Shown: in pieces, positions 4,244 through 33,402 of the stretch
How positions within the stretch are numbered: the stretch's first letter is position 1
Layout: each line of letters opens with the position of its first letter
NCBI GenBank assembly: GCA_016208535.1
Contig: JACQXW010000010.1
Location: 1 to 42,007 of the forward strand
Direction: 5' to 3'
Origin: Candidatus Terrybacteria bacterium
Lineage (GTDB): Bacteria; Patescibacteriota; Minisyncoccia; UBA9983
DNA length: 42,007 nucleotides
The notes under the pieces: generated by a model
The model's database searches: none
Told to the model about the DNA's origin: nothing
The model's input: the letters and a program-made list of their open reading frames with translations, nothing else
Translations under genes and position numbers: made by a program

Positions 4244-4731
4244 AGCAGAAGAAGATTTTAGATTTATTTTCTAAAGAAGATTATTTAATCCGTAAATTTT
4301 ATTTTACTGGTGGCACGCCACTTTCCGCCTTTTATCTGTTTTTCAATAAGACAAATTTTTTAAAAGTAGATTTTAATTATTATCCATTTCCTCGTATTGA
4401 AAAAGGAATGAAATATAAAAATATTATTATAGATAGTATTTATGATATTGCTGTTAATAAGGTCCATACTATTTCGATGAAAGCTAGAGCTCGCGATTTT
4501 ATTGATGTTTATTTTATTATTAAAGAAAAAGGATACACTTTTGAAAAACTCTTAATTGACGCAAAAGCCAAATTTGACTGACATATTGATTCTGTTCAAT
4601 TGGGTACTCAACTTATCAAAGCTACAGAAGTGAGAGATTATCCTCGTATGCTCAAGAAAATCAACCATCAGGAATGGAAAGATTTCTTTCTTAAAGAAGC
4701 CCAAAAATTAAAATCAGAAATTCTTTATTAA
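4216..4731 (+). pseudogene. AbiEii/AbiGii-like nucleotidyltransferase toxin (DUF1814-like), degraded
   Basis: FYFTGGTPLSAFYL...VDFNYYPFPRIEKG...ARARDFIDVYFIIKEKGY. The segment that normally holds the NTase catalytic motif looks deleted. An in-frame TGA at 4579-4581 (KFD*HID) is followed by 49 more in-frame codons ending at 4731. Confidence 0.5.
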
Positions 4732-4740
4732 AGAGGGGAT

Positions 4741-4749
4741 TTATCCACA
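4741..4749 (+). promoter_or_regulatory. TTATCCACA (perfect DnaA-box consensus 9-mer)
   Basis: Exact 9-mer in the intergenic region upstream of the 722-aa surface-protein gene. Confidence 0.5.
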
Positions 4750-4760
4750 CCCGCCCTTGC

Positions 4761-4768
4761 GGGGGGGG
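4761..4768. repeat. homopolymeric G8 tract
   Basis: gcGGGGGGGGct lies between the TTATCCACA motif and a TATGAA(T) -10-like box. Confidence 0.9.
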
Positions 4769-4798
4769 CTTAAATGATAGGATTTAAACAATATGAAT

Positions 4799-4860
4799 CC
4801 CGTTAGAAATAAGGTTGTAATAACGGGAAGTATTATTAGGTTAATAAAATTTCTAACGGG
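4799..4860. repeat. 12-bp inverted repeat CCCGTTAGAAAT / ATTTCTAACGGG around a 38-nt spacer
   Basis: The repeat ends exactly at the ATG of the 4861 ORF. It shares the CCCGTTAGAA core with the hairpin at 3689-3717. Confidence 0.8.
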
Positions 4861-7029
4861 ATGAAAAACATCAAAAAATTATTTATTATCAGTTTATTTT
4901 TAGGTATTTTGGTCGCAGCTGGAGGTTTTGGTTATCAGGCCCAGGCCGCTGGCTTAACTCAAATCCAGATTGACGCCATTCTTGGTCTACTTCGCTCTTT
5001 TGGCGCAGACGCAGCAACAGTTAGCAATGTTCAATCCGCTCTCACAGGCGCGCCAGTTGTTCCTCCAACACCTCCTCCACCTCCTTCAACTACTCCTTCA
5101 ACCGCAGCATGGTGCCATGATTTTTATGTTAATTTAAAGGTTGAAGATTCCGGGAGTGAAGTTGGCGCATTAAAAACTGCTTTAATAAAGGATGGTTTTC
5201 CAATAAATGAAAGTTTAAATTTTAATGAAGAGACTGTCTCAGCAGTCATTGGTTTTCAAGAAAAATACAAAGACGAAATTTTAATTCCCGTAGGCCTTCA
5301 ATATGGAACCGGTTATGTTGGCGCATCAACAAGAGCCAAATTGAATTCGCTTTATGGCTGCCTGATTCCTGTTCCTCCTCCACCGCCGTCAGAAATTACC
5401 ATAATCCCAACTCCAACACCGACACCAATAATAGCAACCACCACTCCCTCCATCACCGTGCTTTCGCCGAACGGAGGGGAGGTGTTTGTACAAGGGCAAA
5501 ATAATACAATTTCGTGGGAATCAAGCAATCTCCCGTCCAATACAACCTATGTTCATCTTGCACTAATATCGGAAACTGCCGGCGAAGTTGGCTTTATTAA
5601 TTATACGAATACAAATGACCCGATCTTAAATTGCGGCTCATACTTATTAAGTGCTAATGGTAATTATAGCTGGGATGGAAAAACCGCATGTAAGAATAGT
5701 CAAAAAGTTAATGTATCAGTTGGAAATTATAAAATCAATGCGAGATTATATTCATGGCCTAATACTAATAATCCAGGAATAGAAATTGCTTTAGATTCCA
5801 GCGACGCGGCGTTCAGTATTGCGGCGGCGACACAATCCTCAATAAAACCCATGATATTTAGAGACATTTTGAAAGTAGAGAGTGTAACTCCGTATGATGT
5901 TGCGAATTTAGGTTTTGGTGTCTATCAAGTGAGCGCTCAATATAACTTGGGATCATATCACCAAGGCAAGTGGTATGAAGGATTGAATCCGGGCATCTCG
6001 GGTCCGGTGTGGGTTGAATTTAGTTGGCCAAACCGGCCTGACACTGATGTTCTGTTGCAAGACGAAAATGGTCTTAGCCGAAAAATTTATCTTCCCTCTG
6101 CCGGAGCAAATACAACAGGTAATCCATGGTATTATTGGATAGCCGAGGACGGATCAAGTTATTATGCCCATACAAGTCATGGCCCTAGTTGGCCTAATCT
6201 TTCTAGTAGTGAAGCATTAAAACTGGAGCATCTTGCTCAAAAAGCAGCAACCACCACCACCCCCTCCATCACCGTGCTTTCGCCGAACGGCGGGGAGAGT
6301 TGGAGTGTCGGTTCAACACAGACGATTCGTTGGACATCTCAAAATTTGCCTTCCGGGTCAAATTATCAGTTTTCAATTGATCTTCGTAAAAACGATGTCA
6401 ACATTAGAACACTTTTTATTTCAACGGAGAATGATGGCACTCAACAATGGATAGTCCCGGATATTGTTTCAAGTGGAATCGAAACTGGTTTAAAAATCCG
6501 ACTTTCTCTTTATGTAGTAGGAACTGCTAAACCTCTTTATTACGACGACAGCGACGCGGCGTTCAGTATTGCGGCGGCAGGGCCAGCAACAGGGACTGTG
6601 ACTATCGCTTCACCAAATGGCGGAGAAACATATGTCCAGGGGTCAACTTACAATATCAACTGGACAAATTTTGGTTTTGGATCTGATGCCTGGGCGCAAA
6701 TCCAGCTCAGGAATTCAACTGATCCCTCTAAGATGGTTAGTCTTATCGTTAATTCAGTGCCAGCAACGGCAAATACTGGAAGTACATACAGCTGGACTGT
6801 GCCTAATACCATTCCGGCTGGCAAATATCTTATTTGGGTGACAATGGGAAGTGGATTAGATTCTACTGGAAATCGCGTTCTCGGCTCTGATTATTCCGAC
6901 GCGGCGTTCAGCATTGTGGCCACAACCACTTCTGGTTTAGGGGCGGTGCCGGCATCAACACAAACAGCAAGCGCCCTCGGGCCTTTATTAGAGGCGATAA
7001 ACAAACTAATTGAACTCTTGAAAAAATAG
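4861..7029 (+). CDS. secreted/cell-surface protein: signal peptide, peptidoglycan-binding-like domain, Pro/Thr linkers, three repeated beta-sandwich-like modules
   Basis: 722 aa. N-terminal signal MKNIKKLFIISLFLGILVAAGGFGYQAQA. A PG_binding_1-like stretch (GSEVGALKTALIKDGF...GFQEKY). Three modules each start ...SPNGGE..V/QGS...W and end SDAAFSI(A/V)A. Identical 29-mers occur at 5446/6262 and at 5800/6550. Confidence 0.8.
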   Translation: MKNIKKLFIISLFLGILVAAGGFGYQAQAAGLTQIQIDAILGLLRSFGADAATVSNVQSALTGAPVVPPTPPPPPSTTPSTAAWCHDFYVNLKVEDSGSEVGALKTALIKDGFPINESLNFNEETVSAVIGFQEKYKDEILIPVGLQYGTGYVGASTRAKLNSLYGCLIPVPPPPPSEITIIPTPTPTPIIATTTPSITVLSPNGGEVFVQGQNNTISWESSNLPSNTTYVHLALISETAGEVGFINYTNTNDPILNCGSYLLSANGNYSWDGKTACKNSQKVNVSVGNYKINARLYSWPNTNNPGIEIALDSSDAAFSIAAATQSSIKPMIFRDILKVESVTPYDVANLGFGVYQVSAQYNLGSYHQGKWYEGLNPGISGPVWVEFSWPNRPDTDVLLQDENGLSRKIYLPSAGANTTGNPWYYWIAEDGSSYYAHTSHGPSWPNLSSSEALKLEHLAQKAATTTTPSITVLSPNGGESWSVGSTQTIRWTSQNLPSGSNYQFSIDLRKNDVNIRTLFISTENDGTQQWIVPDIVSSGIETGLKIRLSLYVVGTAKPLYYDDSDAAFSIAAAGPATGTVTIASPNGGETYVQGSTYNINWTNFGFGSDAWAQIQLRNSTDPSKMVSLIVNSVPATANTGSTYSWTVPNTIPAGKYLIWVTMGSGLDSTGNRVLGSDYSDAAFSIVATTTSGLGAVPASTQTASALGPLLEAINKLIELLKK

Positions 7030-15951: not shown

Positions 15952-16737
15952 TTGAAAGTAATAATATTGGTTTTATTTGCAGTTGCATTGCCTTTTACGG
16001 CTTTAGCATCTGAAACTGATTTTTATTTTCAGGTTCAAAGTCTTGACTGGAGAGAATATGACCTTAACGACAAGCAGCTTGTAAAAGAATCAGGACCCAT
16101 TTTTGGCATGGGATACACAGGTAAATACTATATCCCCAAGCCTTTGGTTTTAAAGCCAAGGATTGAACTTTTTGGGGGTGTGGTAGATTACGATGGCCAG
16201 ACCTGGGGTGGCGATCCTGTATCAGCTGAAACAGGGTTTCTAGGGGTTAAATTGGAAGCAGATTTAGGTTTAAATTTTCCAATAACTCTTGATTTTCCAT
16301 TGGAAAACAAAAGGTTTTCAATAGAACCTTTTGCAGGCCTGGGTAATAGACAATGGACAAGACACACCGGCTATTTTGAGGACTGGAACATTTTTTATAG
16401 TCGTTTTGGGCTCCGTGTTGTAATGGTGGAGGAGAGCGATAAAAATGAATTTTTTGCCGAGGGAGCGTTAAAACTCCCGATTTCCAACAAAATGACGGCA
16501 GACCTGACTGATTTGGGATTTAGTAAGATCACGCTCAGGCCCGGTAAGAAACCATCTTTTTACATTGAAGGAGGGATTAGGCTCAGTAAATTCAAAATAA
16601 GCCTATTTTACGAGGGTTTAAGATTTCTAAAGGCTCCTGATGTGGATTTGGGGACTAGGGACGGGCAGCAGTGGTTTTGTTATCAACCAGAATCAAAAGC
16701 GGATATCTACGGATTAAACCTTGGATATTCGTTTTAA
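15952..16737 (+). CDS. signal-peptide protein with outer-membrane beta-barrel-like features
   Basis: 261 aa with a TTG start 6 nt after AAGGAGG (15939-15945). Signal MKVIILVLFAVALPFTALA|SE. Alternating hydrophobic strands (FGMGYTGKYYI, IELFGGVVDY, GFLGVKLEADLGLNF, ISLFYEGLRF) and a C-terminus ...YGLNLGYSF ending in Phe. Confidence 0.55.
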   Translation: MKVIILVLFAVALPFTALASETDFYFQVQSLDWREYDLNDKQLVKESGPIFGMGYTGKYYIPKPLVLKPRIELFGGVVDYDGQTWGGDPVSAETGFLGVKLEADLGLNFPITLDFPLENKRFSIEPFAGLGNRQWTRHTGYFEDWNIFYSRFGLRVVMVEESDKNEFFAEGALKLPISNKMTADLTDLGFSKITLRPGKKPSFYIEGGIRLSKFKISLFYEGLRFLKAPDVDLGTRDGQQWFCYQPESKADIYGLNLGYSF

Positions 16738-16765
16738 AGAGGAGGATATATTCCTCCTCTTTTTA
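16738..16765 (+). terminator. intrinsic terminator
   Basis: AGAGGAGGA-tatat-TCCTCCTCT followed by TTTTT. Confidence 0.7.
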
Positions 16766-16792
16766 TTTTAGAAAAAATATTTTAAAAAAAAA

Positions 16793-16841
16793 TTATCCAC
16801 AAAAAAATTTGCTTTGCAAAATTTTTTTCATGGGGTATGAT
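16793..16841 (+). promoter_or_regulatory. TTATCCACA (16793-16801) followed by the nrdD promoter TTTGCA-N17-TATGAT
   Basis: TTATCCACAaaaaaatttgcTTTGCAaaatttttttcatggggTATGATaaaagtatcttATG. Confidence 0.5.
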
Positions 16842-16852
16842 AAAAGTATCTT

Positions 16853-18991
16853 ATGGCAAAAATTTCTAAAAAAATCAAAGCCCCGAAAAAAATCACGAAG
16901 AGAGACGGCCGGGTTGTTGATTTTGACCAGAATAAAATCACCAAAGCCATTCATAAGGCTCTGACAGCCTCTGGCCAGGGCGATGGAAAAGAGTCAAAAA
17001 AGGTTTCTGACCGCGTAATCAGCCTTATAAATAGGCGTTTTAAGAAGGAGGAGGTTCCTAATGTTGAGGAGGTTCAGGATATTGTGGAAGAGGTCTTGAT
17101 TCTAGAGGGCTATGTGGAAACAGCCAAATCTTACATTCTTTACCGCGAACAGCGCCGCCGCATCCGAGAGCAAAAAACCGCGCTTGACGAGAGCCTGGAT
17201 ATGGTTGATAAATATCTTCGCAATGACGACTGGCAGGTGCGCGAAAACGCCAATATGTCTTTTTCTTTGCAGGGATTGCATCACTATATTATTTCCGCAG
17301 TGAGTAAAAAATACTGGCTGAACAAAATTTACACTCCGGAAATAAGAAAGGCGGTTGAAGAGGGCTCGTTCCATATTCATAATCTTGACTTTTTAGGGAC
17401 TTACTGCTGCGGTTGGGATTTGATGGATCTTTTGATGCGTGGTTTTGGTGGCGTGCTAGGTAAAGTAGAATCAAAGTCAGCCAAACATCTCAATGTCGCC
17501 TTGGGCCAGTTGGTTAATTTTTTCTATACCCTGCAGGGAGAATCAGCAGGCGCCCAGGCAGTGAGCAATTTTGACACCTTGCTGGCGCCATTTATAAGGT
17601 ATGACAATCTCACCTATCAGCAGGTGAAAAAGACCATCCAGACTTTTATTTTCAATTGCGCCATTCCCACTAGGGTTGGTTTTCAAACACCTTTTTTAAA
17701 TGTCACTTTGGATATAAAGCCGCCAGGGCATTTGGCAAGCCAGTCAGTTATCATTGGCGGCCAGCCTCAAAATGAAACCTACGGCGATTTTCAAGAAGAG
17801 ATGAATATTTTTAACAAAGCCTTTTTTGAGGTTATGGCCGAAGGCGACGCCAAGGGCCGGGTTTTCACATTTCCCATCCCCACCGTTAACATCACTAAAG
17901 ATTTTGATTGGGACAATCCTATTTTGCATGGCCTCTGGGAAATGACCGGGAAATACGGGGTACCTTATTTTGCCAATTTTATCAATTCTGAAATGAGCGC
18001 AGATGATGCTCGTTCCATGTGCTGCCGGTTGCGCCTGGACAACCGAGAACTTTATAAGCGCGGAGGAGGTCTTTTTGGTTCAGCCCCTTTGACCGGGTCA
18101 GTTGGCGTGATAACTATTAATCTGCCTCAAATCGGTTATCTTTCAAAAACCAAAAAAGATTTTTTTGACCGGCTTGGCAGGATGATGGATTTGGCAAAGG
18201 ACAGCTTGGAGATTAAGAGAAAGGTTCTTGATAATTTTATTGAAAGGGGACTTTATCCGTACTCCCGCTATTATCTGGAGTCGGTAAAGAGGATGAGGAA
18301 AAGTTATTGGGGAAATCATTTTTCCACCATTGGCCTGATTGGCATGAATGAATGTTTGCTTAATTTTATTGAGAAAGATATTACCGCCTCAGCCGGCCAG
18401 AAATTTAGCGTGGAGATTCTTGATTTTATGCGCGAGAGATTGGTTAAATACCAGGAAGAAACAGACAATCTTTATAATCTTGAGGCCACTCCGGCAGAGG
18501 GGACCAGCTACCGGCTGGCGAAAATAGACAAGGCGAGATTTCCGGACATTATCACAGCCGGCGAAAAAGAACCCTATTACACCAACTCCACCCATTTGCC
18601 GGTCGGATTCACAGACGATATTTTCGAGGCCCTGAAACTGCAGGATAATCTGCAGACCAAATATACCGGCGGCACCGTGCTTCACGGTTTTATCGGCGAA
18701 AAGATTTCTGACCACGAGATTATCAAGAGTATTCTTAAGAAAATTTTCAGCAAACATCATTTGCCTTATCTCACTTTTACGCCCACCTTCAGCATTTGTC
18801 CCAACCACGGTTATATCAGCGGAGAGCATTTCACCTGCCCGCACTGCCTCATTCCCCAACCTTGCGAGGTTTATTCGCGAGTGGTTGGGTATATCAGGCC
18901 CGTCCAACAGTGGCATGTGGGCAAACAAGAAGAGTATAATGAAAGAAAAGAATATGTTGTTGGCAGGACTGCAAAAATTCACCCTAATTGA
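16853..18991 (+). CDS. nrdD: anaerobic ribonucleoside-triphosphate reductase (class III) with N-terminal ATP-cone
   Basis: 712 aa. ATP-cone start (ITKRDGRVVDFDQNKI). C-terminal Zn site CPNHG...CPHC and the glycyl-radical motif ...YSRVVGYIRPV. Confidence 0.95.
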   Translation: MAKISKKIKAPKKITKRDGRVVDFDQNKITKAIHKALTASGQGDGKESKKVSDRVISLINRRFKKEEVPNVEEVQDIVEEVLILEGYVETAKSYILYREQRRRIREQKTALDESLDMVDKYLRNDDWQVRENANMSFSLQGLHHYIISAVSKKYWLNKIYTPEIRKAVEEGSFHIHNLDFLGTYCCGWDLMDLLMRGFGGVLGKVESKSAKHLNVALGQLVNFFYTLQGESAGAQAVSNFDTLLAPFIRYDNLTYQQVKKTIQTFIFNCAIPTRVGFQTPFLNVTLDIKPPGHLASQSVIIGGQPQNETYGDFQEEMNIFNKAFFEVMAEGDAKGRVFTFPIPTVNITKDFDWDNPILHGLWEMTGKYGVPYFANFINSEMSADDARSMCCRLRLDNRELYKRGGGLFGSAPLTGSVGVITINLPQIGYLSKTKKDFFDRLGRMMDLAKDSLEIKRKVLDNFIERGLYPYSRYYLESVKRMRKSYWGNHFSTIGLIGMNECLLNFIEKDITASAGQKFSVEILDFMRERLVKYQEETDNLYNLEATPAEGTSYRLAKIDKARFPDIITAGEKEPYYTNSTHLPVGFTDDIFEALKLQDNLQTKYTGGTVLHGFIGEKISDHEIIKSILKKIFSKHHLPYLTFTPTFSICPNHGYISGEHFTCPHCLIPQPCEVYSRVVGYIRPVQQWHVGKQEEYNERKEYVVGRTAKIHPN

Positions 18992-19661
18992 TTATCCGGG
19001 CAAAATCGCGGCCTCGGTTTTTACTGCTGGCTGCAATTTTTTGTGTTCTTTTTGTCACAACCCGGAATTAGTGGATCCTTTTTTGATGAAAAATCAGCCT
19101 GTATTGTCAGAAAGTGAAATTTTTGAATTTTTAGAAAGCCGAAGAGGGGATTTAGAGGGTGTATGCATTACCGGTGGCGAACCTACTTTGCATAAAGATT
19201 TGGCCGATTTTTTATCAAAGATAAAAAGTTTGGGTTTTAGCGTAAAATTGGATACAAACGGTAGCCATCCGGAGATGCTGGAAAAATTGATTAAAGAAAA
19301 ACTTGTTGATTATATCGCCATGGACATCAAGGCGCCGCTTGAAAGATATGAAGAAATAACAGGGGTGGCGAATTTAGAGAAAATTAAAAAGAGTGTTGAG
19401 TTGATAAAAAATTCCGATATTGATTACGAGTTTAGGACAACGGTTGTGCCAAGATTCCACAGCAAAGAAGATATCATTCAAATCGCCAAAGAAATTTCGT
19501 CTCCAAAGAAGCCGGCGAAAAAATATTTCCTTCAGCAGTTTTATTCCATAAAAACCTTGGACCCGGAATTAAAGAAAGAAAAAGGGTATTCAAAAGAAAT
19601 CCTCGCTGAATTCTGCGAGGCAGTGAAGCCGTACTTTGAGCACTGTGGCGTGCGTTATTGA
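18939..19661 (+). CDS. nrdG: anaerobic RNR activating protein (radical SAM)
   Basis: The CNFLCSFCHN (CxxxCxxC) cluster motif and GGEPTL. It overlaps the nrdD 3' end. The start is 18939 or 18954; the ORF-track start at 18885 is less likely. Confidence 0.9.
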   Translation: MKEKNMLLAGLQKFTLIDYPGKIAASVFTAGCNFLCSFCHNPELVDPFLMKNQPVLSESEIFEFLESRRGDLEGVCITGGEPTLHKDLADFLSKIKSLGFSVKLDTNGSHPEMLEKLIKEKLVDYIAMDIKAPLERYEEITGVANLEKIKKSVELIKNSDIDYEFRTTVVPRFHSKEDIIQIAKEISSPKKPAKKYFLQQFYSIKTLDPELKKEKGYSKEILAEFCEAVKPYFEHCGVRY

Positions 19662-19685
19662 CAAAAAATCTGTTTCGTGTATAAT
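19658..19685 (+). promoter_or_regulatory. near-consensus promoter TTGACA-N16-TATAAT
   Basis: TTGACAaaaaatctgtttcgtgTATAAT. It is followed by a ~60-nt leader with the hairpin TCCCGC-ctt-GCGGGA and an AAGGAG SD. Confidence 0.65.
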
Positions 19686-19749
19686 ACAATTAGTTCTTTT
19701 CAAATCCCGCCTTGCGGGACAAATACCAAATTTTAAGGAGAAAACTGCC

Positions 19750-20256
19750 ATGAAAAAGCAGAACACCTATGATCAGCAGACAGCAAAGTTTATCGCGACG
19801 GTATGCCAGAATATGCCCGAATTACCGGGCGACGTGATGCAGGGATGGATTCAAAACCCGAAAGGCCTCAAGAAATTTCTCAAAGGCCTCTGCCCACCGG
19901 AAACTTCATCAAGTTTCCCTGTCTGGAAAACCGTCACTCTCGGTATTCATAAATCAGTCGATGAATACCGCAAAGCTCTCGAAGCAAACGGATTCAAAAT
20001 AGGCAACTGGGGCGACGACATTCTCGGCAAATCGGCTTTCACCGTGAGCTCCGAAGAAACAGAAGTGGAATTAGTAAAAATGACCGTCGCAGAACTCGGA
20101 TTCAAAGACAGCGCGACCAGGAAAGATATCTACGAGAGAGCCATTGAGTTCGGGCTCAAGCTCTGCCCGAATGAAGTTGGTCCCGCCCTGCGCCTGCAAT
20201 ACACAGATCAGCCAATCCTTGGTCCTTTTTATTTTTTAAAATTTTTGCTAAACTAA
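19750..20256 (+). CDS. N-terminal part of a disrupted gene (candidate DGR target), unknown family
   Basis: The ATG lies 9 nt after AAGGAG. The region looks visibly more G+C-rich than its surroundings. The conserved-looking sequence ...CPNEVGPALRLQYTDQP is followed by low-complexity ILGPFYFLKFLLN and a stop. The ORF-track start at 19636 is rejected. Confidence 0.55.
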   Translation: MKKQNTYDQQTAKFIATVCQNMPELPGDVMQGWIQNPKGLKKFLKGLCPPETSSSFPVWKTVTLGIHKSVDEYRKALEANGFKIGNWGDDILGKSAFTVSSEETEVELVKMTVAELGFKDSATRKDIYERAIEFGLKLCPNEVGPALRLQYTDQPILGPFYFLKFLLN

Positions 20257-20442
20257 ATTTTAGATATTAGATTAATAAATGCCTGCGGTTACGGCTTCAG
20301 GCGATCGAATTCTGAAATCAGTAAAGCAGAGAACGGCATCGGGCACGCTTTATGCCGGAGTTGTTTATTGATTTCAAAAAAATAAAGAAACTTGGTATAA
20401 GGCGCTGGGGCATTAAAGATGCCGTATACGATTCAACTCTAA

Positions 20443-20658
20443 GAGTATTCGAAGAGTGGTGGCATAGATGGCGTCTTATACATTACTGACTCCAATGGCA
20501 ACCTCAATGTGTTTGAAGTGGAACGGAATAGCGATGGCTTATGGCTTAACGGCAACAACGGCAATCCTGACAACTTGTGGAACGCTGACAACCAGTGGGT
20601 TTTCTCTCGCGGCAACTCTCTTTATTTTTTCCCCGCTCTTCGCGGGGTTTTTAATTAA
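20443..20658 (+). other. open frame without start codon: C-terminal fragment of the disrupted gene; Asn-codon-rich VR/TR-like segment
   Basis: Same frame as the 19750 ATG. It reads ...GIDGVLYITDSNGNLNVFEVERNSDGLWLNGNNGNPDNLWNADNQWVFSRGNSLYFF..., with 8 AAC and 4 AAT codons in about 47 codons. Confidence 0.5.
20631..20652 (+). terminator. GC hairpin plus T-run at the end of the VR/TR-like segment
   Basis: CCCCGC-tcttc-GCGGGG followed by TTTTT. The palindrome TTAATTAA that follows supplies the stop codons of both convergent reading frames. Confidence 0.6.
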
Positions 20659-21023
20659 GCAGTTGTTTTTGCCATCCACCCAGTATCCTGCCAATTTCAT
20701 CCAAATATTCAGAAAAGACAATATATTTTTTATTATCCAAAGATTTTATTTCCCAGGAAATTTGCAGAAAAAACTTCAAAAGGTCCAGTTTTGAAATGGC
20801 TTTTTGTATGTACGGAGTTTTTAAGTTTTTATTCAATCGGCTTGCTATAAAAATCAACTCAGCGATTTCTATTATTAAACTATCAATCTTAATTCCCAGC
20901 GTGTAGCGCGAATCTTTCGGAAAGTGCGGAATAAATTCATGCCACAGCTTATATAACGCAATAATACAAATAATTATTGTTAAATTTTGTCGGGGGGGGG
21001 GGCGTACTGGTGAAATTTTTCAT
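20651..21023 (-). pseudogene. avd: Avd-like four-helix-bundle protein (DGR accessory), apparent frameshift in a C11/G11 tract
   Basis: The open frame reads ...LYKLWHEFIPHFPKDSRYTLGIKIDSLIIEIAELIFIASRLNK...KLDLLKFFLQISWEIKSLDNKKYIVFSEYLDEIGRILGGWQKQLLN. The only in-frame start is the TTG at 20857 (68 aa), which would remove the first helices. The ATG at 21023 comes into frame, giving 123 aa, if the homopolymer were 10 nt rather than 11. Confidence 0.55.
20992..21002. repeat. homopolymeric G11 tract
   Basis: gtcGGGGGGGGGGGcgtactgg, 39 nt upstream of the RT ATG and inside the avd 5' region. Confidence 0.9.
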
Positions 21024-21040
21024 ATACTAATAATACGCCC

Positions 21041-22027
21041 ATGATAAACAAATTCCAAACTAAATACGAAGAAATTATCTCTATCGAAAACCTCCTTTCG
21101 GCTTGGGAAGAATTTTTGAAAGGCAAAAGAAACAGAAAAGATGTTCAAGAATTTCAGTTTAATCTGATGGACAACATCCTTGCTCTCCATGGCAATCTCG
21201 CCAGCCGAACTTACAGCCACGGCGGATATAAAGCATTCAAAATCAACGACCCAAAGCCGAGAGATATCCACAAAGCAAGCGTGCGGGACAGATTGTTGCA
21301 TCACGCCATTTACAGGATTTTGTATCCGTATTTTGACAAAACATTCATAGCCGATTCTTTTTCCTGCAGATTAAAAAAGGGCACGCACAAAGCGATAAAC
21401 AGATTCAGAAAATTTGCCTACAAAACCGGCAAAAATGACACCAAAACCTGCTGGATTTTAAAATGCGATATCAAGAAGTTTTTTGCCAACATAGACCACA
21501 AAATTTTAATCAATGTCCTGCGTGAACATATTGTGGACGAAAACTTGATAAAACTTCTCAAAAACATCGTTGAAAGTTTTTCGTCAGCAAGAGATGGCAT
21601 CGGTTTACCATTAGGCAATCTCACTTCGCAACTTTTCGTAAATATTTACATGAACAAATTTGACCAATTTGTAAAACACAAATTGAAAGCGAAATATTAC
21701 ATCAGATATTGCGACGATTTTGTTGTTTTCTTGGAAAGTAAAAATTATGCGCAAAAATTGATTCCGCCCGTCAGGGAATTCCTAAACAAAGAGCTTAAAC
21801 TGGAACTGCATCCCGACAAAATTTCCGTCAAAACTCTGGCTTCCGGCGCCGACTTTCTCGGCTGGATTAATTTTACCGACCATAGAATTTTGAGAACCGC
21901 CACAAAAAGAAAAATATTCAGGAATATCAAGGAAAGGGGAGGTAAGGCGGAAACCGTCCAGTCGTATTTGGGGCTGATTAGGTGGGGGAATACAAGGAAA
22001 TTGCGTAATTTAATTGTAAAGTGTTGA
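21041..22027 (+). CDS. DGR-type reverse transcriptase
   Basis: 328 aa. ...NDPKPRDIHKASVRDRLLHHAIY...KCDIKKFFANIDH...GLPLGNLTSQLFVNIYMNKFDQFVKH...YIRYCDDFVVF...LELHPDKISV...ADFLGW. It carries the LGxxxSQ motif-4 signature and YxDD. Confidence 0.9.
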   Translation: MINKFQTKYEEIISIENLLSAWEEFLKGKRNRKDVQEFQFNLMDNILALHGNLASRTYSHGGYKAFKINDPKPRDIHKASVRDRLLHHAIYRILYPYFDKTFIADSFSCRLKKGTHKAINRFRKFAYKTGKNDTKTCWILKCDIKKFFANIDHKILINVLREHIVDENLIKLLKNIVESFSSARDGIGLPLGNLTSQLFVNIYMNKFDQFVKHKLKAKYYIRYCDDFVVFLESKNYAQKLIPPVREFLNKELKLELHPDKISVKTLASGADFLGWINFTDHRILRTATKRKIFRNIKERGGKAETVQSYLGLIRWGNTRKLRNLIVKC

Positions 22028-22059
22028 CATATTTTTGAGAGGATATATACTGTTAATCA

Positions 22060-22150
22060 TAAGGCCGTAGATGACAGGCGCTTGGGATAAAACAAGATAA
22101 GTCCTGTTGAGGTAAATTAACATTGCGGCTTTTGGGCCGTATTTTATTTT
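22060..22150 (+). promoter_or_regulatory. possible rplJ (L10) leader
   Basis: A ~120-nt untranslated spacer before rplJ with local pairings (GACAGG...CCTGTT). The assignment rests on position only. Confidence 0.25.
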
Positions 22151-22151
22151 T

Positions 22152-22676
22152 ATGTCCATAACAAAACAAAAAAAAGAGGAAATATTAGAGAATCTTAAAG
22201 AAAGCCTGAAAAAGGCGAAGATTGTGGTTTTTGTTAATTTTCATGGTCTAAGTGTTTCTCTTGCCAATGAACTAAGAAAGATTTTAAGGAGTATGGGCGT
22301 GACTTATATGGTTGCCAAGAAGACTTTGATTAAAAAAGCGCTGGAGACTTTTGGATTTTCCGGAGAGATGCCGAAATTGGAGGGAGAGATTGCCATCGCT
22401 GTTTCTGACAGCGATCCCCTTGCCTCAGCCAAGGCCTTGGAGCAGTTTGCGAAAAAAAATAAAGATAAAATCAAACTTGGTGGCGGAGTTTTTGAAAACA
22501 AATACATTGGAGCGGAAACCGTGATTATGCTTGCCAATATTCCAGCGCGCGAAATTTTACTTGGCCAATTAGTCAATATTATAAATTCGCCGATTCAGGG
22601 ATTGGTCGTAACCTTGAACGGATTAGTAAGCAAGTTTGTGAGAACTTTAGAAGAAATAGCAAAAAAGAAATCATAA
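22152..22676 (+). CDS. rplJ: 50S ribosomal protein L10
   Basis: 174 aa. The sequence (...VVFVNFHGLSVSLANELRKILR...YMVAKKTL) and its position upstream of rplL support the call. Confidence 0.9.
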   Translation: MSITKQKKEEILENLKESLKKAKIVVFVNFHGLSVSLANELRKILRSMGVTYMVAKKTLIKKALETFGFSGEMPKLEGEIAIAVSDSDPLASAKALEQFAKKNKDKIKLGGGVFENKYIGAETVIMLANIPAREILLGQLVNIINSPIQGLVVTLNGLVSKFVRTLEEIAKKKS

Positions 22677-30342: not shown

Positions 30343-31490
30343 AGGTTAATAAATATTCTCATTATTTTCATATAGACTGGATTCTTTTTTTTGCCACCTT
30401 GCCGTTATTGGCCGCAGGTTTAATTACTATGCGTTCTTTGGGTATGGAGAATCAGCCAACTGGCGGAGATTATTTTTTTACCCGCCAGCTCATTTGGGTT
30501 GCCATCAGTTTTGCCATTTTTTTTATTTTCAGTCTCGTTGATTGGCGTTTTTTAAGAAAGAGCGGCTTTTTGATAATTCTTTTTTTGCTTTCAATTACCA
30601 GCCTTCTGGCTCTCTTGGTTTTCGGCAAGGTGACCCGCGGCGCAGTCAGTTGGTTTGAGTTGCATTTTTTTTCCATTGAGCCAGCCGATCCTATCAAACT
30701 TGTTCTCATTCTTATCCTGGCAAAATATTTTTCCCGGCGGCACATTGAAATCGCCAATATCCGGCACATCATTATCTCCGGAATTTACATGTCTGTTTTT
30801 GCCGGCCTTGTGTTTTTCCAGCCGGATTTCGGCTCAGCCGTCATTATTTTTCTCATCTGGCTTGGCATGATTTTGGTTTCAGGAATTAATAAAAAACATT
30901 TACTTGCCGTTTTTCTCATTATTGCCCTACTTTTCGGCATATCCTGGTTTTTTGTTTTTAAGCCCTACCAAAAGGCGCGCATCGTCACTTTTTTGCATCC
31001 TTTAAAAGATATCCGGGGGGCGGGATATAATGCCATGCAGTCAATGATTGCCGTGGGTTCGGGCCAGATTTTCGGCAAAGGAATCGGCTATGGCAGCCAG
31101 AGCCGGCTGGGCTATCTGCCGGAACATCAGACGGATTTTATTTTCGCCGCCTTTGCTGAAGAATGGGGGTTGATTGGCGTTCTTTTTCTTTTTTTGTTTT
31201 ACGGGATTGTCATTTGGAGAATTTTAAAAAACGCTTTTGTCGCTGAGAGCAATTTTGAGACTCTTTTTGGGATGGGTTTGGCGGTTTTTATTGCGGCGCA
31301 TTTTATAATTCATGTGGGAATGGATATCGGGCTTCTGCCAATCACAGGCGTCAACTTGGCGTTTATGAGTTATGGCGGCTCTAATTTAGTGACCGTCTTT
31401 GCCGGTCTGGGCATGCTGATGGGCATGCGCCGCTACTCGCGACAGGTGCATCCCGAAGACGCCACAGCGGAATTTTTAGGGCCGAAATGA
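30339..31490 (+). CDS. SEDS-family protein (RodA/FtsW/SpoVE)
   Basis: 383 aa, polytopic. ...QPDFGSA...GAGYNAMQSMIAVGSGQIFGKG...LPEHQTDFIFAAFAEEWG... Confidence 0.85.
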   Translation: MKVNKYSHYFHIDWILFFATLPLLAAGLITMRSLGMENQPTGGDYFFTRQLIWVAISFAIFFIFSLVDWRFLRKSGFLIILFLLSITSLLALLVFGKVTRGAVSWFELHFFSIEPADPIKLVLILILAKYFSRRHIEIANIRHIIISGIYMSVFAGLVFFQPDFGSAVIIFLIWLGMILVSGINKKHLLAVFLIIALLFGISWFFVFKPYQKARIVTFLHPLKDIRGAGYNAMQSMIAVGSGQIFGKGIGYGSQSRLGYLPEHQTDFIFAAFAEEWGLIGVLFLFLFYGIVIWRILKNAFVAESNFETLFGMGLAVFIAAHFIIHVGMDIGLLPITGVNLAFMSYGGSNLVTVFAGLGMLMGMRRYSRQVHPEDATAEFLGPK

Positions 31491-31523
31491 TAAAGTAACC
31501 AGTAATCAGTAATTAGTAATAAA

Positions 31524-32690
31524 ATGAGAGATTTTGAAATAGAAAATTTTATTAAACAAGAAGAAAAGAGGCAAAAAAAGGCGATAAATCTTATTGCCTC
31601 TGAGAATTTTGCTTCCAAAGATGTTTTAAAGGCGCTCGGGTCTGTTTTTATGAATAAATACGCCGAGGGCTACGCGGGAAAAAGATATTACGGCGGAAAT
31701 GAAATTGTGGATAAACTGGAAAAATTATGCCAAGAGCGCGCGCTGAAATTATTTATCCGCCAGCCGGCGGATCGCCATAAATGGAGTGTAAATGTCCAGC
31801 CTTACTCCGGCTCGCCGGCAAATCTGGCGGTTTTTTTGGCGCTTGTGCCGAAAGGTGGAAAAATTATGGGAATGTCTTTGGAAATGGGCGGGCATTTGAC
31901 CCATGGACAAAGAGTTTCTATAACCGGAAAACTTTGGAAGCAAGTGCCGTATGGCGTGGATAAAAAAACGGAGCAGTTGGATTATGGCGAGATTTTAAAA
32001 ATAGCCAAAAAAGAAAAGCCGGTGCTGATTATCGCGGGAGCCACGGCTTATTCGCGAAAAATTGATTTTAAAAAATTCAGAGAAATTGCAGACACAGTTG
32101 GCGCGTATTTAATGGTGGATATGTCGCACATCGCGGGGCTGGTGGCGGGTGGAGTTCATTCGAGTCCATTCCCATATGCAGATGTGGTAATGACAACAAC
32201 TCATAAAACCTTGCGCGGCCCGAGAGCAGCTCTAATTTTTTGCAAACTGGAATTAGCTTCAAAAATTGATAAAGCTGTTTTTCCCGGTTTGCAGGGCGGG
32301 CCGCATATGAATCAGGTGGTGGCAATGGCAGTGGCTTTGAGAGAGGCTATGCAACCGAGTTTTAAAAAATACGCGCGACAAGTTGTGAAAAACGCCAAGG
32401 TCTTGGCGAATGAATTAAAAAAGCGCAGCTGGAGAATAATTTCCAACGGAACTGATACACACTTGTTTTTAGTTGATGTCTGGCAGAGGGGGATTGGCGG
32501 AAAGGAGGTAAGCGAAAGATTAGAGAAAGCCGGAATTATCGTTAATAAAAATACCATTCCGTTTGACACTCGCAAACCAGCTGATCCGTCCGGTATCCGT
32601 ATCGGCACGCCGGCGGTAACAACGCGAGGAATGAAAGAAAAAGATATGGTAAAAATCGCGGAAAAAATAGATAAAATATTAAAATTATGA
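31524..32690 (+). CDS. glyA: serine hydroxymethyltransferase
   Basis: 388 aa. ...LIASENF...YAEGYAGKRYYGG...TTTHKTLRGPR (PLP lysine). Confidence 0.9.
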   Translation: MRDFEIENFIKQEEKRQKKAINLIASENFASKDVLKALGSVFMNKYAEGYAGKRYYGGNEIVDKLEKLCQERALKLFIRQPADRHKWSVNVQPYSGSPANLAVFLALVPKGGKIMGMSLEMGGHLTHGQRVSITGKLWKQVPYGVDKKTEQLDYGEILKIAKKEKPVLIIAGATAYSRKIDFKKFREIADTVGAYLMVDMSHIAGLVAGGVHSSPFPYADVVMTTTHKTLRGPRAALIFCKLELASKIDKAVFPGLQGGPHMNQVVAMAVALREAMQPSFKKYARQVVKNAKVLANELKKRSWRIISNGTDTHLFLVDVWQRGIGGKEVSERLEKAGIIVNKNTIPFDTRKPADPSGIRIGTPAVTTRGMKEKDMVKIAEKIDKILKL

Positions 32691-33402
32691 TTATTGACGG
32701 CAGGAAAATTGCGGAGGAAATAAAGGAAGATTTAAGGCAGGATATTTTAAGGACCAACAAAAAGCTCAAGTTAGTTATTATTCAGGTTGGTGAGAACGAA
32801 GTTTCAAAAAAGTTTATTGAAAGAAAAATAAAGTTTGCGGAGGATATCGGAGTTAAAACTCGGCTTTATAATCTACCGGCAGACATTTCCACCTCGCAAT
32901 TGCGCAAAAAAATGGCGGAAATTTGCCATATAAAAGAGAATGACGGAGTGATAATCCAGTTGCCGTTGCCGGAGCAAATAAACGTCGTTCAAAAATTTTG
33001 CCTCCTCTTGTTGGTGTCATAAAAATAATTTTTGAAAAATATAATATTAAACCGGCTGGAAAAAATATCGTTGTCATCGGCAGGGGGATTTTGGTTGGCA
33101 AGCCGATTGCCAATTGGCTCATCAATGAAGGAGCGACGGTTTCTGTTTTAAATTCAAAAACTTCCAACCCTAGTGGTTATACCCTAATGGCTGATGTAAT
33201 AATTAGCGGCGCAGGCAAACCGGGCTTGATAAAGCTGGAGATGGTGAAAGACGGGGTTATAATAATTGACGCGGGTTCGCTGGCTGGCGATGTTGATCCG
33301 GCTGTGGCAGAGAAGGCCTCACTTTTTACGCCTGTTCCCGGCGGCGTGGGGCCGATTACTGTGGCAATGGTGTTTAAAAATTTGGTAGAATTAAATAAAT
33401 GA
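32687..33402 (+). pseudogene. folD: methylenetetrahydrofolate dehydrogenase/cyclohydrolase FolD, split by a frameshift and lacking an internal segment
   Basis: ORFs 32687-33022 (...DGVIIQLPLPEQIN...) and 32998-33402 (...FTPVPGGVGPITVAMVFKN...) are both FolD-like. The frame changes in the A5T4 run at 32991-32999. About 27 residues corresponding to the ...KDVDGF... region seem absent. Confidence 0.6.

Follow-up and report, generated by a model that had tools for sequence, protein, structure and literature searches.

A diversity-generating retroelement in Candidatus Terrybacteria whose target gene has very probably lost its variable repeat by a 207-bp deletion

A stretch of DNA with the appearance of a split gene in a Candidatus Terrybacteria genome is very probably explained by a 207-bp deletion that took the last 56 codons from the target gene of a diversity-generating retroelement (DGR); nothing was inserted, and what looks like a second coding half further downstream is the template repeat (TR) of the element. 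The stretch spans positions 19750–20658 of the window, by which we mean the whole 42,007 nt of DNA that were analysed. That there is no insert, that the stop-rich segment is the native leader of the element and that the downstream frame is the TR stands alike for a real allele and for an assembly artefact.

Reading Frames of the Region

The sequence observation in a preliminary description of this region, which saw a candidate DGR target gene interrupted by a stop-rich segment, is confirmed. The ORF from the ATG at 19750 runs through LRLQYTDQP (NEVGPALRLQYTDQP) and then ILGPFYFLKFLLN, ending at the TAA at 20254–20256 after 13 codons that are out of context. Four in-frame TAA codons are present, as had been described, although they lie at 20254, 20383, 20398 and 20440, instead of at 20257, 20380, 20392 and 20440, so that three of the positions first given were off by 3–6 nt. 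The same frame does reopen at 20443, and it stays open up to the TAA at 20656–20658. Other elements of the description were also found: two GGCAT...ATGCC hairpins (20335–20356 and 20409–20423), a first part richer in G+C than the genome (49.2% vs. 40.5%), an AAGGAG Shine-Dalgarno sequence 5′ of the ATG at 19750, a consensus promoter and, in the frame of the gene, the peptide ACGYGFRRS. This peptide had been likened to the GFR-type ends of lectin-fold variable repeats (VRs), but it is not protein; it is a translated RNA hairpin, the first hairpin of the leader described below. The features of the target gene and of the junction downstream of it are as follows.

19658–19685, plus strand: promoter of the target gene, a perfect TTGACA-16-TATAAT (12 of 12 matches)
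19750–20213, plus strand: what remains of the DGR target gene, its 5′ part of about 155 codons out of 211 (from homologue coverage and identity to L090 1–4090)
20213–20214, no strand: deletion junction CAGCC/AATCC (from the alignment with L090; same gap relative to L006, L008 and L009)
20214–20237, plus strand: surviving 3′ arm of the hairpin, AATCCTTGGTCC (20214–20225), and its T-run (from comparison with intact loci)

The Target Gene and Its Homologs

The gene is a DGR target, as had been proposed. Its N-terminal ORF has 136 homologs from Patescibacteria metagenomes, mostly of 205–220 aa, that cover residues 1–156 of the query only. They align to the window through DQP and then continue as xGEWLLIAMEPItDSDGxLxVF...LWLxGxxGxPxxxWxADxQWVFxRGK, whereas the second frame of the window aligns to them solely from ITDSNGNL on and the conserved (x)GEWLLIAMEP is missing from the window. 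The sites that are variable among the homologs (Y, S, I, G, R, C, and others) are Asn, encoded by AAC or AAT, in the second frame of the window, which from the alignment reads as the mark of a template repeat and not of a variable repeat.

Searches of Pfam and NCBIfam with the target gave no match, and no Pfam domain was found in its homologs. An AlphaFold2 model of an intact homolog (pLDDT 92.3) contains strands at residues 159–162, 174–182, 185–192, and 204–208, all four of them past the breakpoint, which falls after residue 155. The top Foldseek matches of this model in the PDB are lectin-like yet weak (E 0.04–1, TM-score 0.42–0.46), the best being the C-terminal domain of Bd2740 and the CRD of Mincle; judging by the model, the target is probably a small lectin-like protein. 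As in the DGR variable proteins with a C-type-lectin fold (Mtd, TvpA, and the lectin-like targets from CPR), the VR makes up the last strands, at the C-terminus, of a compact domain. The target differs from these proteins in that its fold matches are weak (TM-score about 0.45 on the target) and in its lack of any Pfam or NCBIfam match; additionally, its VR motif, LWLxGxxGxPxxxWxADxQWVF, departs from the classical CLec1-3 pattern.

A 207-nt Gap Relative to a Near-Identical Allele

The intact loci used for comparison were L006, L008, and L009, from relatives, and L090 and L091, which carry a near-identical allele. The window is colinear with L006, L008, and L009 on both sides of the junction at 20213/20214: positions 19716–20216 match L006 3966–4467, positions 20225–21100 match L006 4744–5642 (82.5% over 903 nt), and about 206 nt are missing from the window in comparison with L008 and L009. 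Clustered at 90% identity, the truncated protein has a 211-aa companion, P0121, encoded on the Logan contigs L090 (SRR12113398) and L091 (SRR12113405), where its neighbors are, as in the window, the genes for NrdD and its activase. Positions 1–4090 of L090 are the same as 16124–20213 of the window and positions 4298–5649 the same as 20214–21565, with no real mismatch, and the 207 nt between them (L090 4091–4297) are absent from the window exactly at the junction. Alignment of the two fragments to intact homologs, which the preliminary description had proposed, is therefore resolved to 20213/20214. As to its suggestion that a single gene was split by an insertion or by a rearrangement, a rearrangement did strike the target gene; the insertion does not hold, since the intact relatives and the near-identical allele show a 207-nt deletion.

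What the window lacks is the end of the target, 56 codons that include the VR, together with its stop codon and, of a terminator hairpin, the 5′ arm with the loop. The left breakpoint lies 34 nt 5′ of the VR; the right breakpoint lies 66 nt past the last variable site and marks the base of the 3′ arm in the post-VR hairpin. There is no microhomology at CAGCC/AATCC. In the intact loci L006, L008, L009, and L090 this hairpin is full, a long inverted repeat plus T-run located 3′ of the stop codon of the target, whereas the complete structure is absent from the window, with the 3′ arm and the T-run alone remaining. The reading frame is retained across the locus because both the deletion (207 = 3 × 69 nt) and the offset between VR and TR (441 = 3 × 147 nt) are multiples of three; this retention is without meaning, because four stops lie between the two frames.

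The second contig with the intact allele, L091, shows eight differences from L090 and the window within 26 nt (window 20637–20662, L091 3873–3898), a patch that covers the post-TR hairpin and the last codons of avd. Three more differences are found elsewhere and the rest of the 4.8 kb is identical, and from its sequence the patch looks like a small recombination patch.

The Reopened Frame Is the Template Repeat

The features downstream of the junction, up to the accessory gene avd, are the following.

20245–20273, plus strand: candidate promoter of the template RNA, TTGCTA-17-TAGATT (read from the sequence; 8 of 12 matches, below the scan threshold)
20277–20438, plus strand: structured leader RNA, conserved, immediately before the TR (from a covariance model and covariation)
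20482–20615, plus strand: template repeat, rich in AAC/AAT codons (100% identical to the TR of L090; colinear with the TRs of L006 and L008)
20631–20647, plus strand: GC-only hairpin CCCCGC-TCTTC-GCGGGG, followed by a T-run (conserved in L006 and L008)

The VR of L090 (4125–4258) and its TR (4566–4699) show 13 differences, of which 13 are at TR adenines (eight A to G and five A to T), and all 21 differences inside the repeat of L008 are likewise at TR adenines; because of this pattern, positions 20482–20615 of the window are the TR. The second half of the supposed split gene is, hence, not the C-terminus of the same gene, as had been thought, and not coding sequence of the target. About 50 related loci have a VR 420–530 nt 5′ of the TR, with the leader between them, and in these pairs there are 0–1 non-adenine and 5–20 adenine mismatches per 70-nt comparison.

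The region 20440–20700 has no partner in the window, with either copy taken as the template. Likewise, no VR was found in the 518-kb, 97%-complete genome, where blast and an adenine-wildcard scan gave the self match only; the best genomic adenine-wildcard match to the TR has 50 mismatches at the 102 non-adenine positions of the repeat. Nor does the genome contain a second copy of the target family. The GC-only hairpin after the TR abuts the stop codon of avd, on the opposite strand, and from its sequence it is likely the terminator of a leader-TR RNA.

In L009, the same target gene and leader as in the window are followed by a quite different TR (4869–5023), which is unmatched to the VR of the adjacent gene, and the contig ends within this TR; from the sequence, the TR or the cassette may have been swapped at the leader's 3′ edge.

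The Stop-Rich Segment Is a Native Leader

Positions 20214–20481 are present, with 82–88% identity, 3′ of the complete gene in L006, L008, and L009, and they are a normal intergenic region, not an insert. The stop-rich segment had been read as an interruption of the gene; it is the leader that lies 3′ of the complete gene in every intact locus. Of the possibilities put forward for an insert, a small intron or a mobile element found no backing: an Rfam scan of 19000–22500 (covariance models for introns and ribozymes had been suggested as a check of 20215–20455) gave no match with E below 1 and nothing relevant at E ≤ 10, and there was no signal of a group I or II intron, a ribozyme or a mobile element. 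The third, a collapsed product of recombination between VR and TR, does not fit breakpoints that are located 34 nt 5′ of the VR and within the terminator hairpin, that is, at non-homologous VR/TR positions, nor does it fit the retention of the leader, and it was rejected.

More generally, a single gene interrupted by an element of any of these kinds, with halves that are rejoined or were once contiguous, would account for the identical frame on both sides and for the resemblance of the 3′ part to the C-terminus of the homologs, with 75% DNA identity to their VRs. We nevertheless consider it extremely improbable, as the supposed insert occurs 3′ of a complete gene in L006, L008, L009, L090, and around 50 further loci, while the flanks are not contiguous in intact homologs and eleven conserved residues plus the true VR are missing; moreover, the 3′ part agrees at every position with the TR of the intact allele (100% identity), the breakpoints are off the homologous VR and TR positions and the Rfam scan detected no intron or ribozyme.

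Structure of the Leader RNA

The leader contains a hairpin at 20281–20302 (GCCUGCGGU-UACG-GCUUCAGGC), a long stem capped by a hairpin at 20334–20357 and another hairpin at 20409–20423, and conservation of the region extends to about 20470. Two of the leader hairpins have in common a G.U-containing GGU/GCU stem and a YACG loop. RNAalifold on four loci predicted 59 pairs, seven of them with compensatory changes. A covariance model, R1, was built with window positions 20277–20438 and three orthologs (four loci), and it matches about 60 of the 80 loci that were fetched by their reverse transcriptase (RT) protein, always on the strand of the RT gene and at a fixed distance, about 600–780 nt 5′ of its start; in about 50 of the loci a TR comes after the match. 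In the R1 alignment, 89.7% of the cells are paired and 44 of the 49 pairs changed on both sides, counts that are somewhat flattered by the fitting of the alignment to the model; the covariation score is 0.51, in comparison with 0.06–0.09 in slid controls.

The stretch TAGATTAATA of the candidate promoter TTGCTA-17-TAGATT is invariant across four close loci. Together with the GC hairpin and T-run that follow the TR, this candidate promoter before the first hairpin suggests a discrete leader-TR transcript, whose likely start is about 65 nt 3′ of the deletion junction.

No Rfam family was found for the leader RNA, and a scan of 20 related loci gave no match at the gathering score. The conserved nucleotides of the hairpin in RT-9 (RF03080), an orphan RNA motif found near RT genes, agree with the apical hairpin of the leader, GGUUACGGCUUC, with its UACG loop. 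However, the RF03080 score for the leader of the window was 21.3 bits (E 3.6) against a gathering score of 46.1, and none of the homologous leaders in 32 related loci matched RT-9; on account of this sub-threshold score and lack of recurrence, we rejected the leader as a member of RT-9. We found no published description of a leader RNA in DGRs from CPR, which is absence of evidence only.

The avd and Reverse Transcriptase Genes

Three features complete the cassette.

20651–20989, minus strand: accessory gene avd, with its stop codon at 20651–20653 (DivGenRetAVD)
20992–21002, no strand: homopolymer of 11 G between avd and the RT gene (from the sequence)
21041–22027, plus strand: intact DGR-type RT of 328 aa (Pfam RVT_1, E 1.8e-25)

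The open frame of avd, 20654–20989 on the minus strand, matches positions 10–104 of the 104 in the NCBIfam profile DivGenRetAVD (E 1.1e-16), with 61 bits, below the curated cut-off of 80 bits, and it also matches Pfam bAvd. No ATG, GTG, or TTG is in frame for a full-length start, and the sole ATG (21023) is out of frame across the run of 11 G. The G-run is kept in about 60 of 71 related loci, with a length of 6–14 nt (11 G in the window and L008, 12 in L006). In the window, L006, and L008 the ATG located 5′ of the run is out of the Avd frame, 10 or 13 G being required, and in just about 14 loci is this ATG in frame with a full-length Avd. Phase variation, slippage or a start at a non-canonical codon could each account for this pattern of lengths.

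The RT carries the motifs LGNLTSQ (of the GxxxSQ type) and YCDD. We confirmed 520 relatives of this protein and kept 80 of them, all from metagenome-assembled genomes mostly labeled as Patescibacteria. Nearly all of those with enough 5′ sequence bear adenine-specific TR/VR pairs, and relatives 60–70% identical to the RT lie in loci with such pairs. Of the features that define a DGR, the locus thus contains an RT of the DGR clade and a nearby TR; a VR differing from it at template adenines is found in L090 and not in the window.

Class of the Element

The arrangement TR-(avd)-RT is architecture B3, which accounts for 90% of the DGRs from CPR (Wu et al., 2018, NAR 46:11, PMC5758913). [quoted passage not shown] Unlike them, the window allele has no VR and its avd lacks a canonical in-frame start. 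The locus is therefore a representative of the known B3 class of CPR that has degenerated and is left without a VR; it is neither a split gene nor one with an intron.

In the DGR from the Bordetella phage BPP-1 (mtd-avd-TR-brt), the spacer RNA located 3′ of the TR is structured and corresponds to the Rfam RT-10 motif (PMC5737381). Only RT-10 was placed in a DGR by Weinberg et al. (2017), who speculated that other RT motifs belong there too (PMC5737381). The mechanism that we infer for our element is shared with BPP-1, namely that RT and Avd would copy a structured RNA containing the TR with mutagenesis at adenines, and a hairpin after the VR is likewise present in both. They differ in that Rfam gave no match with E below 1 in the window and none at the gathering score in 20 related loci.

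In the commonest class of DGRs from CPR, the part of the template RNA that binds the RT may well be this leader. A bolder proposal, which we make only tentatively, gives the leader the role of working core in a DGR template RNA permuted with respect to that of Bordetella, with the elements for RT/Avd binding and priming located in a leader 5′ of the TR instead of in a spacer 3′ of it. If this were so, the VR-less cassette would be a natural donor-only allele, still making leader-TR RNA, and perhaps cDNA, without a recipient.

Origin and Consequences of the Deletion

From the comparison with the intact loci, the full layout is a target gene with its VR, a hairpin/terminator, the leader RNA, the TR, a second hairpin/terminator, avd on the opposite strand and the RT gene. 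The leader-TR RNA would be reverse-transcribed by RT and Avd, with misincorporation opposite template adenines, and the resulting cDNA would replace the VR, recoding the C-terminal strands of the target. Relative to the intact allele, the window allele has undergone a 207-bp deletion without microhomology that took away 56 codons with the VR, the stop codon and, of the hairpin, the 5′ arm and its loop. The stump of 155 codons now reads into the leader, and it is from this leader that the four in-frame TAA triplets and the hairpins come. The TR mimics the lost C-terminus because it is a non-coding template copy of the 3′ end of the gene. With no VR in the genome, no second copy of the target and the four modeled strands lost, the truncated stump is most likely non-functional and the cassette is orphaned: it keeps its TR, avd, and RT, with no VR to write into.

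The gap could also have arisen during assembly or binning of the metagenome-assembled genome, from an organism that in fact carries the intact allele of L090/L091. The truncated protein is on record from the contig of the window only, and the intact allele, otherwise identical, appears in the assemblies of two independent runs; besides, a VR that varies in the population tangles assembly graphs, and a minority variant may be picked up. Such an artefact is unlikely, however, as the breakpoints share no sequence, so there is no k-mer overlap to join them, and they are away from the variable VR positions where graphs branch, while a de Bruijn contig requires reads with the k-mers of the junction. 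The junction sequence CAGCC/AATCC was not found in JGI metagenome contigs, which is uninformative. We consider, with good though not full confidence, that cells do carry the deletion as an allele, perhaps in a minority.

As a particular case of a genuine deletion, the loss might stem from DGR activity itself, through a break or stalled intermediate at the post-VR hairpin during mutagenic retrohoming and end joining that removed the VR. Such an origin would be in line with the right breakpoint coinciding exactly with the base of the hairpin's 3′ arm, with a lost block that is essentially the VR and the 5′ arm of the hairpin, with the lack of microhomology and with recent activity of the element in the same strain (13 adenine-only changes); relatives, in turn, decay otherwise, by a broken RT (L008) or the loss of the whole cassette (L092–L095). 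It is nonetheless quite unlikely: we see one event only, and its junction carries no mechanistic signature such as cDNA-derived sequence or mutagenised adenines; no DGR landmark is known for the left breakpoint, and long inverted repeats are deletion hot spots unaided. We also considered, and rejected, an aberrant retrohoming of the leader into the gene: it is less parsimonious, there is only one copy of the leader-TR, and the junction falls within the terminator hairpin, about 65 nt before the point where the RNA likely starts. A simple deletion of 207 bp from an intact target gene thus continues to be our preferred explanation for the locus.

Turnover of DGR Cassettes

The same genome contains a second DGR, in the minus strand of contig C3 (about 31211–33051), with an RT 80% identical to that of the window and a leader RNA of the same kind. 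Its TR/VR pair shows no non-adenine and 7–10 adenine mismatches per 60 nt. Its avd retains only positions 2–56 of the 104 in the profile, the N-terminal half, and has a (GA)11 repeat in place of the G-run. Each of the two cassettes in this tiny genome is thus damaged in its own way, and the two kinds of damage are possibly complementary; if the template RNA were indeed permuted as proposed above, the cassette of the window might supply Avd in trans to the DGR of contig C3.

Other states of the cassette are found among relatives. In L092–L095, with a target remnant of 147 aa (P0007), the sequence from the middle of the target through the end of the RT gene (L006 4389–6558) is lost and the stump adjoins the gene for T2SS F, and in L008 (1542–2250) the RT gene is broken by a deletion and a frameshift, though the VR has 21 adenine-only changes. 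L006 and L008 have the same cassette (82% identical) between the type II secretion/pilus genes for T2SS E and F, while in the window it is flanked by the gene for the NrdD activase and by rplJ/rplL; these differing neighbors indicate that the cassette has moved as a unit between genomic contexts.

As originally posed, the finding is largely ordinary, and a modest residual interest lies in the leader RNA and in the pair of alleles with and without a VR. For annotation, it illustrates that a TR can mimic the lost C-terminus of a truncated target, even in frame, with the risk that an intron, a frameshift or a split gene is called, be it automatically or by eye. The segment that could be taken for junk is a strongly covarying RNA absent from Rfam. 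The window and L090 constitute a natural pair of otherwise identical alleles, without and with the VR of an active DGR. Together with the broken RT of L008, the lost cassettes of L092–L095 and the partial avd of contig C3, this allele pair is suggestive of a rapid turnover, among ultra-small bacteria, both of DGRs and of their targets.
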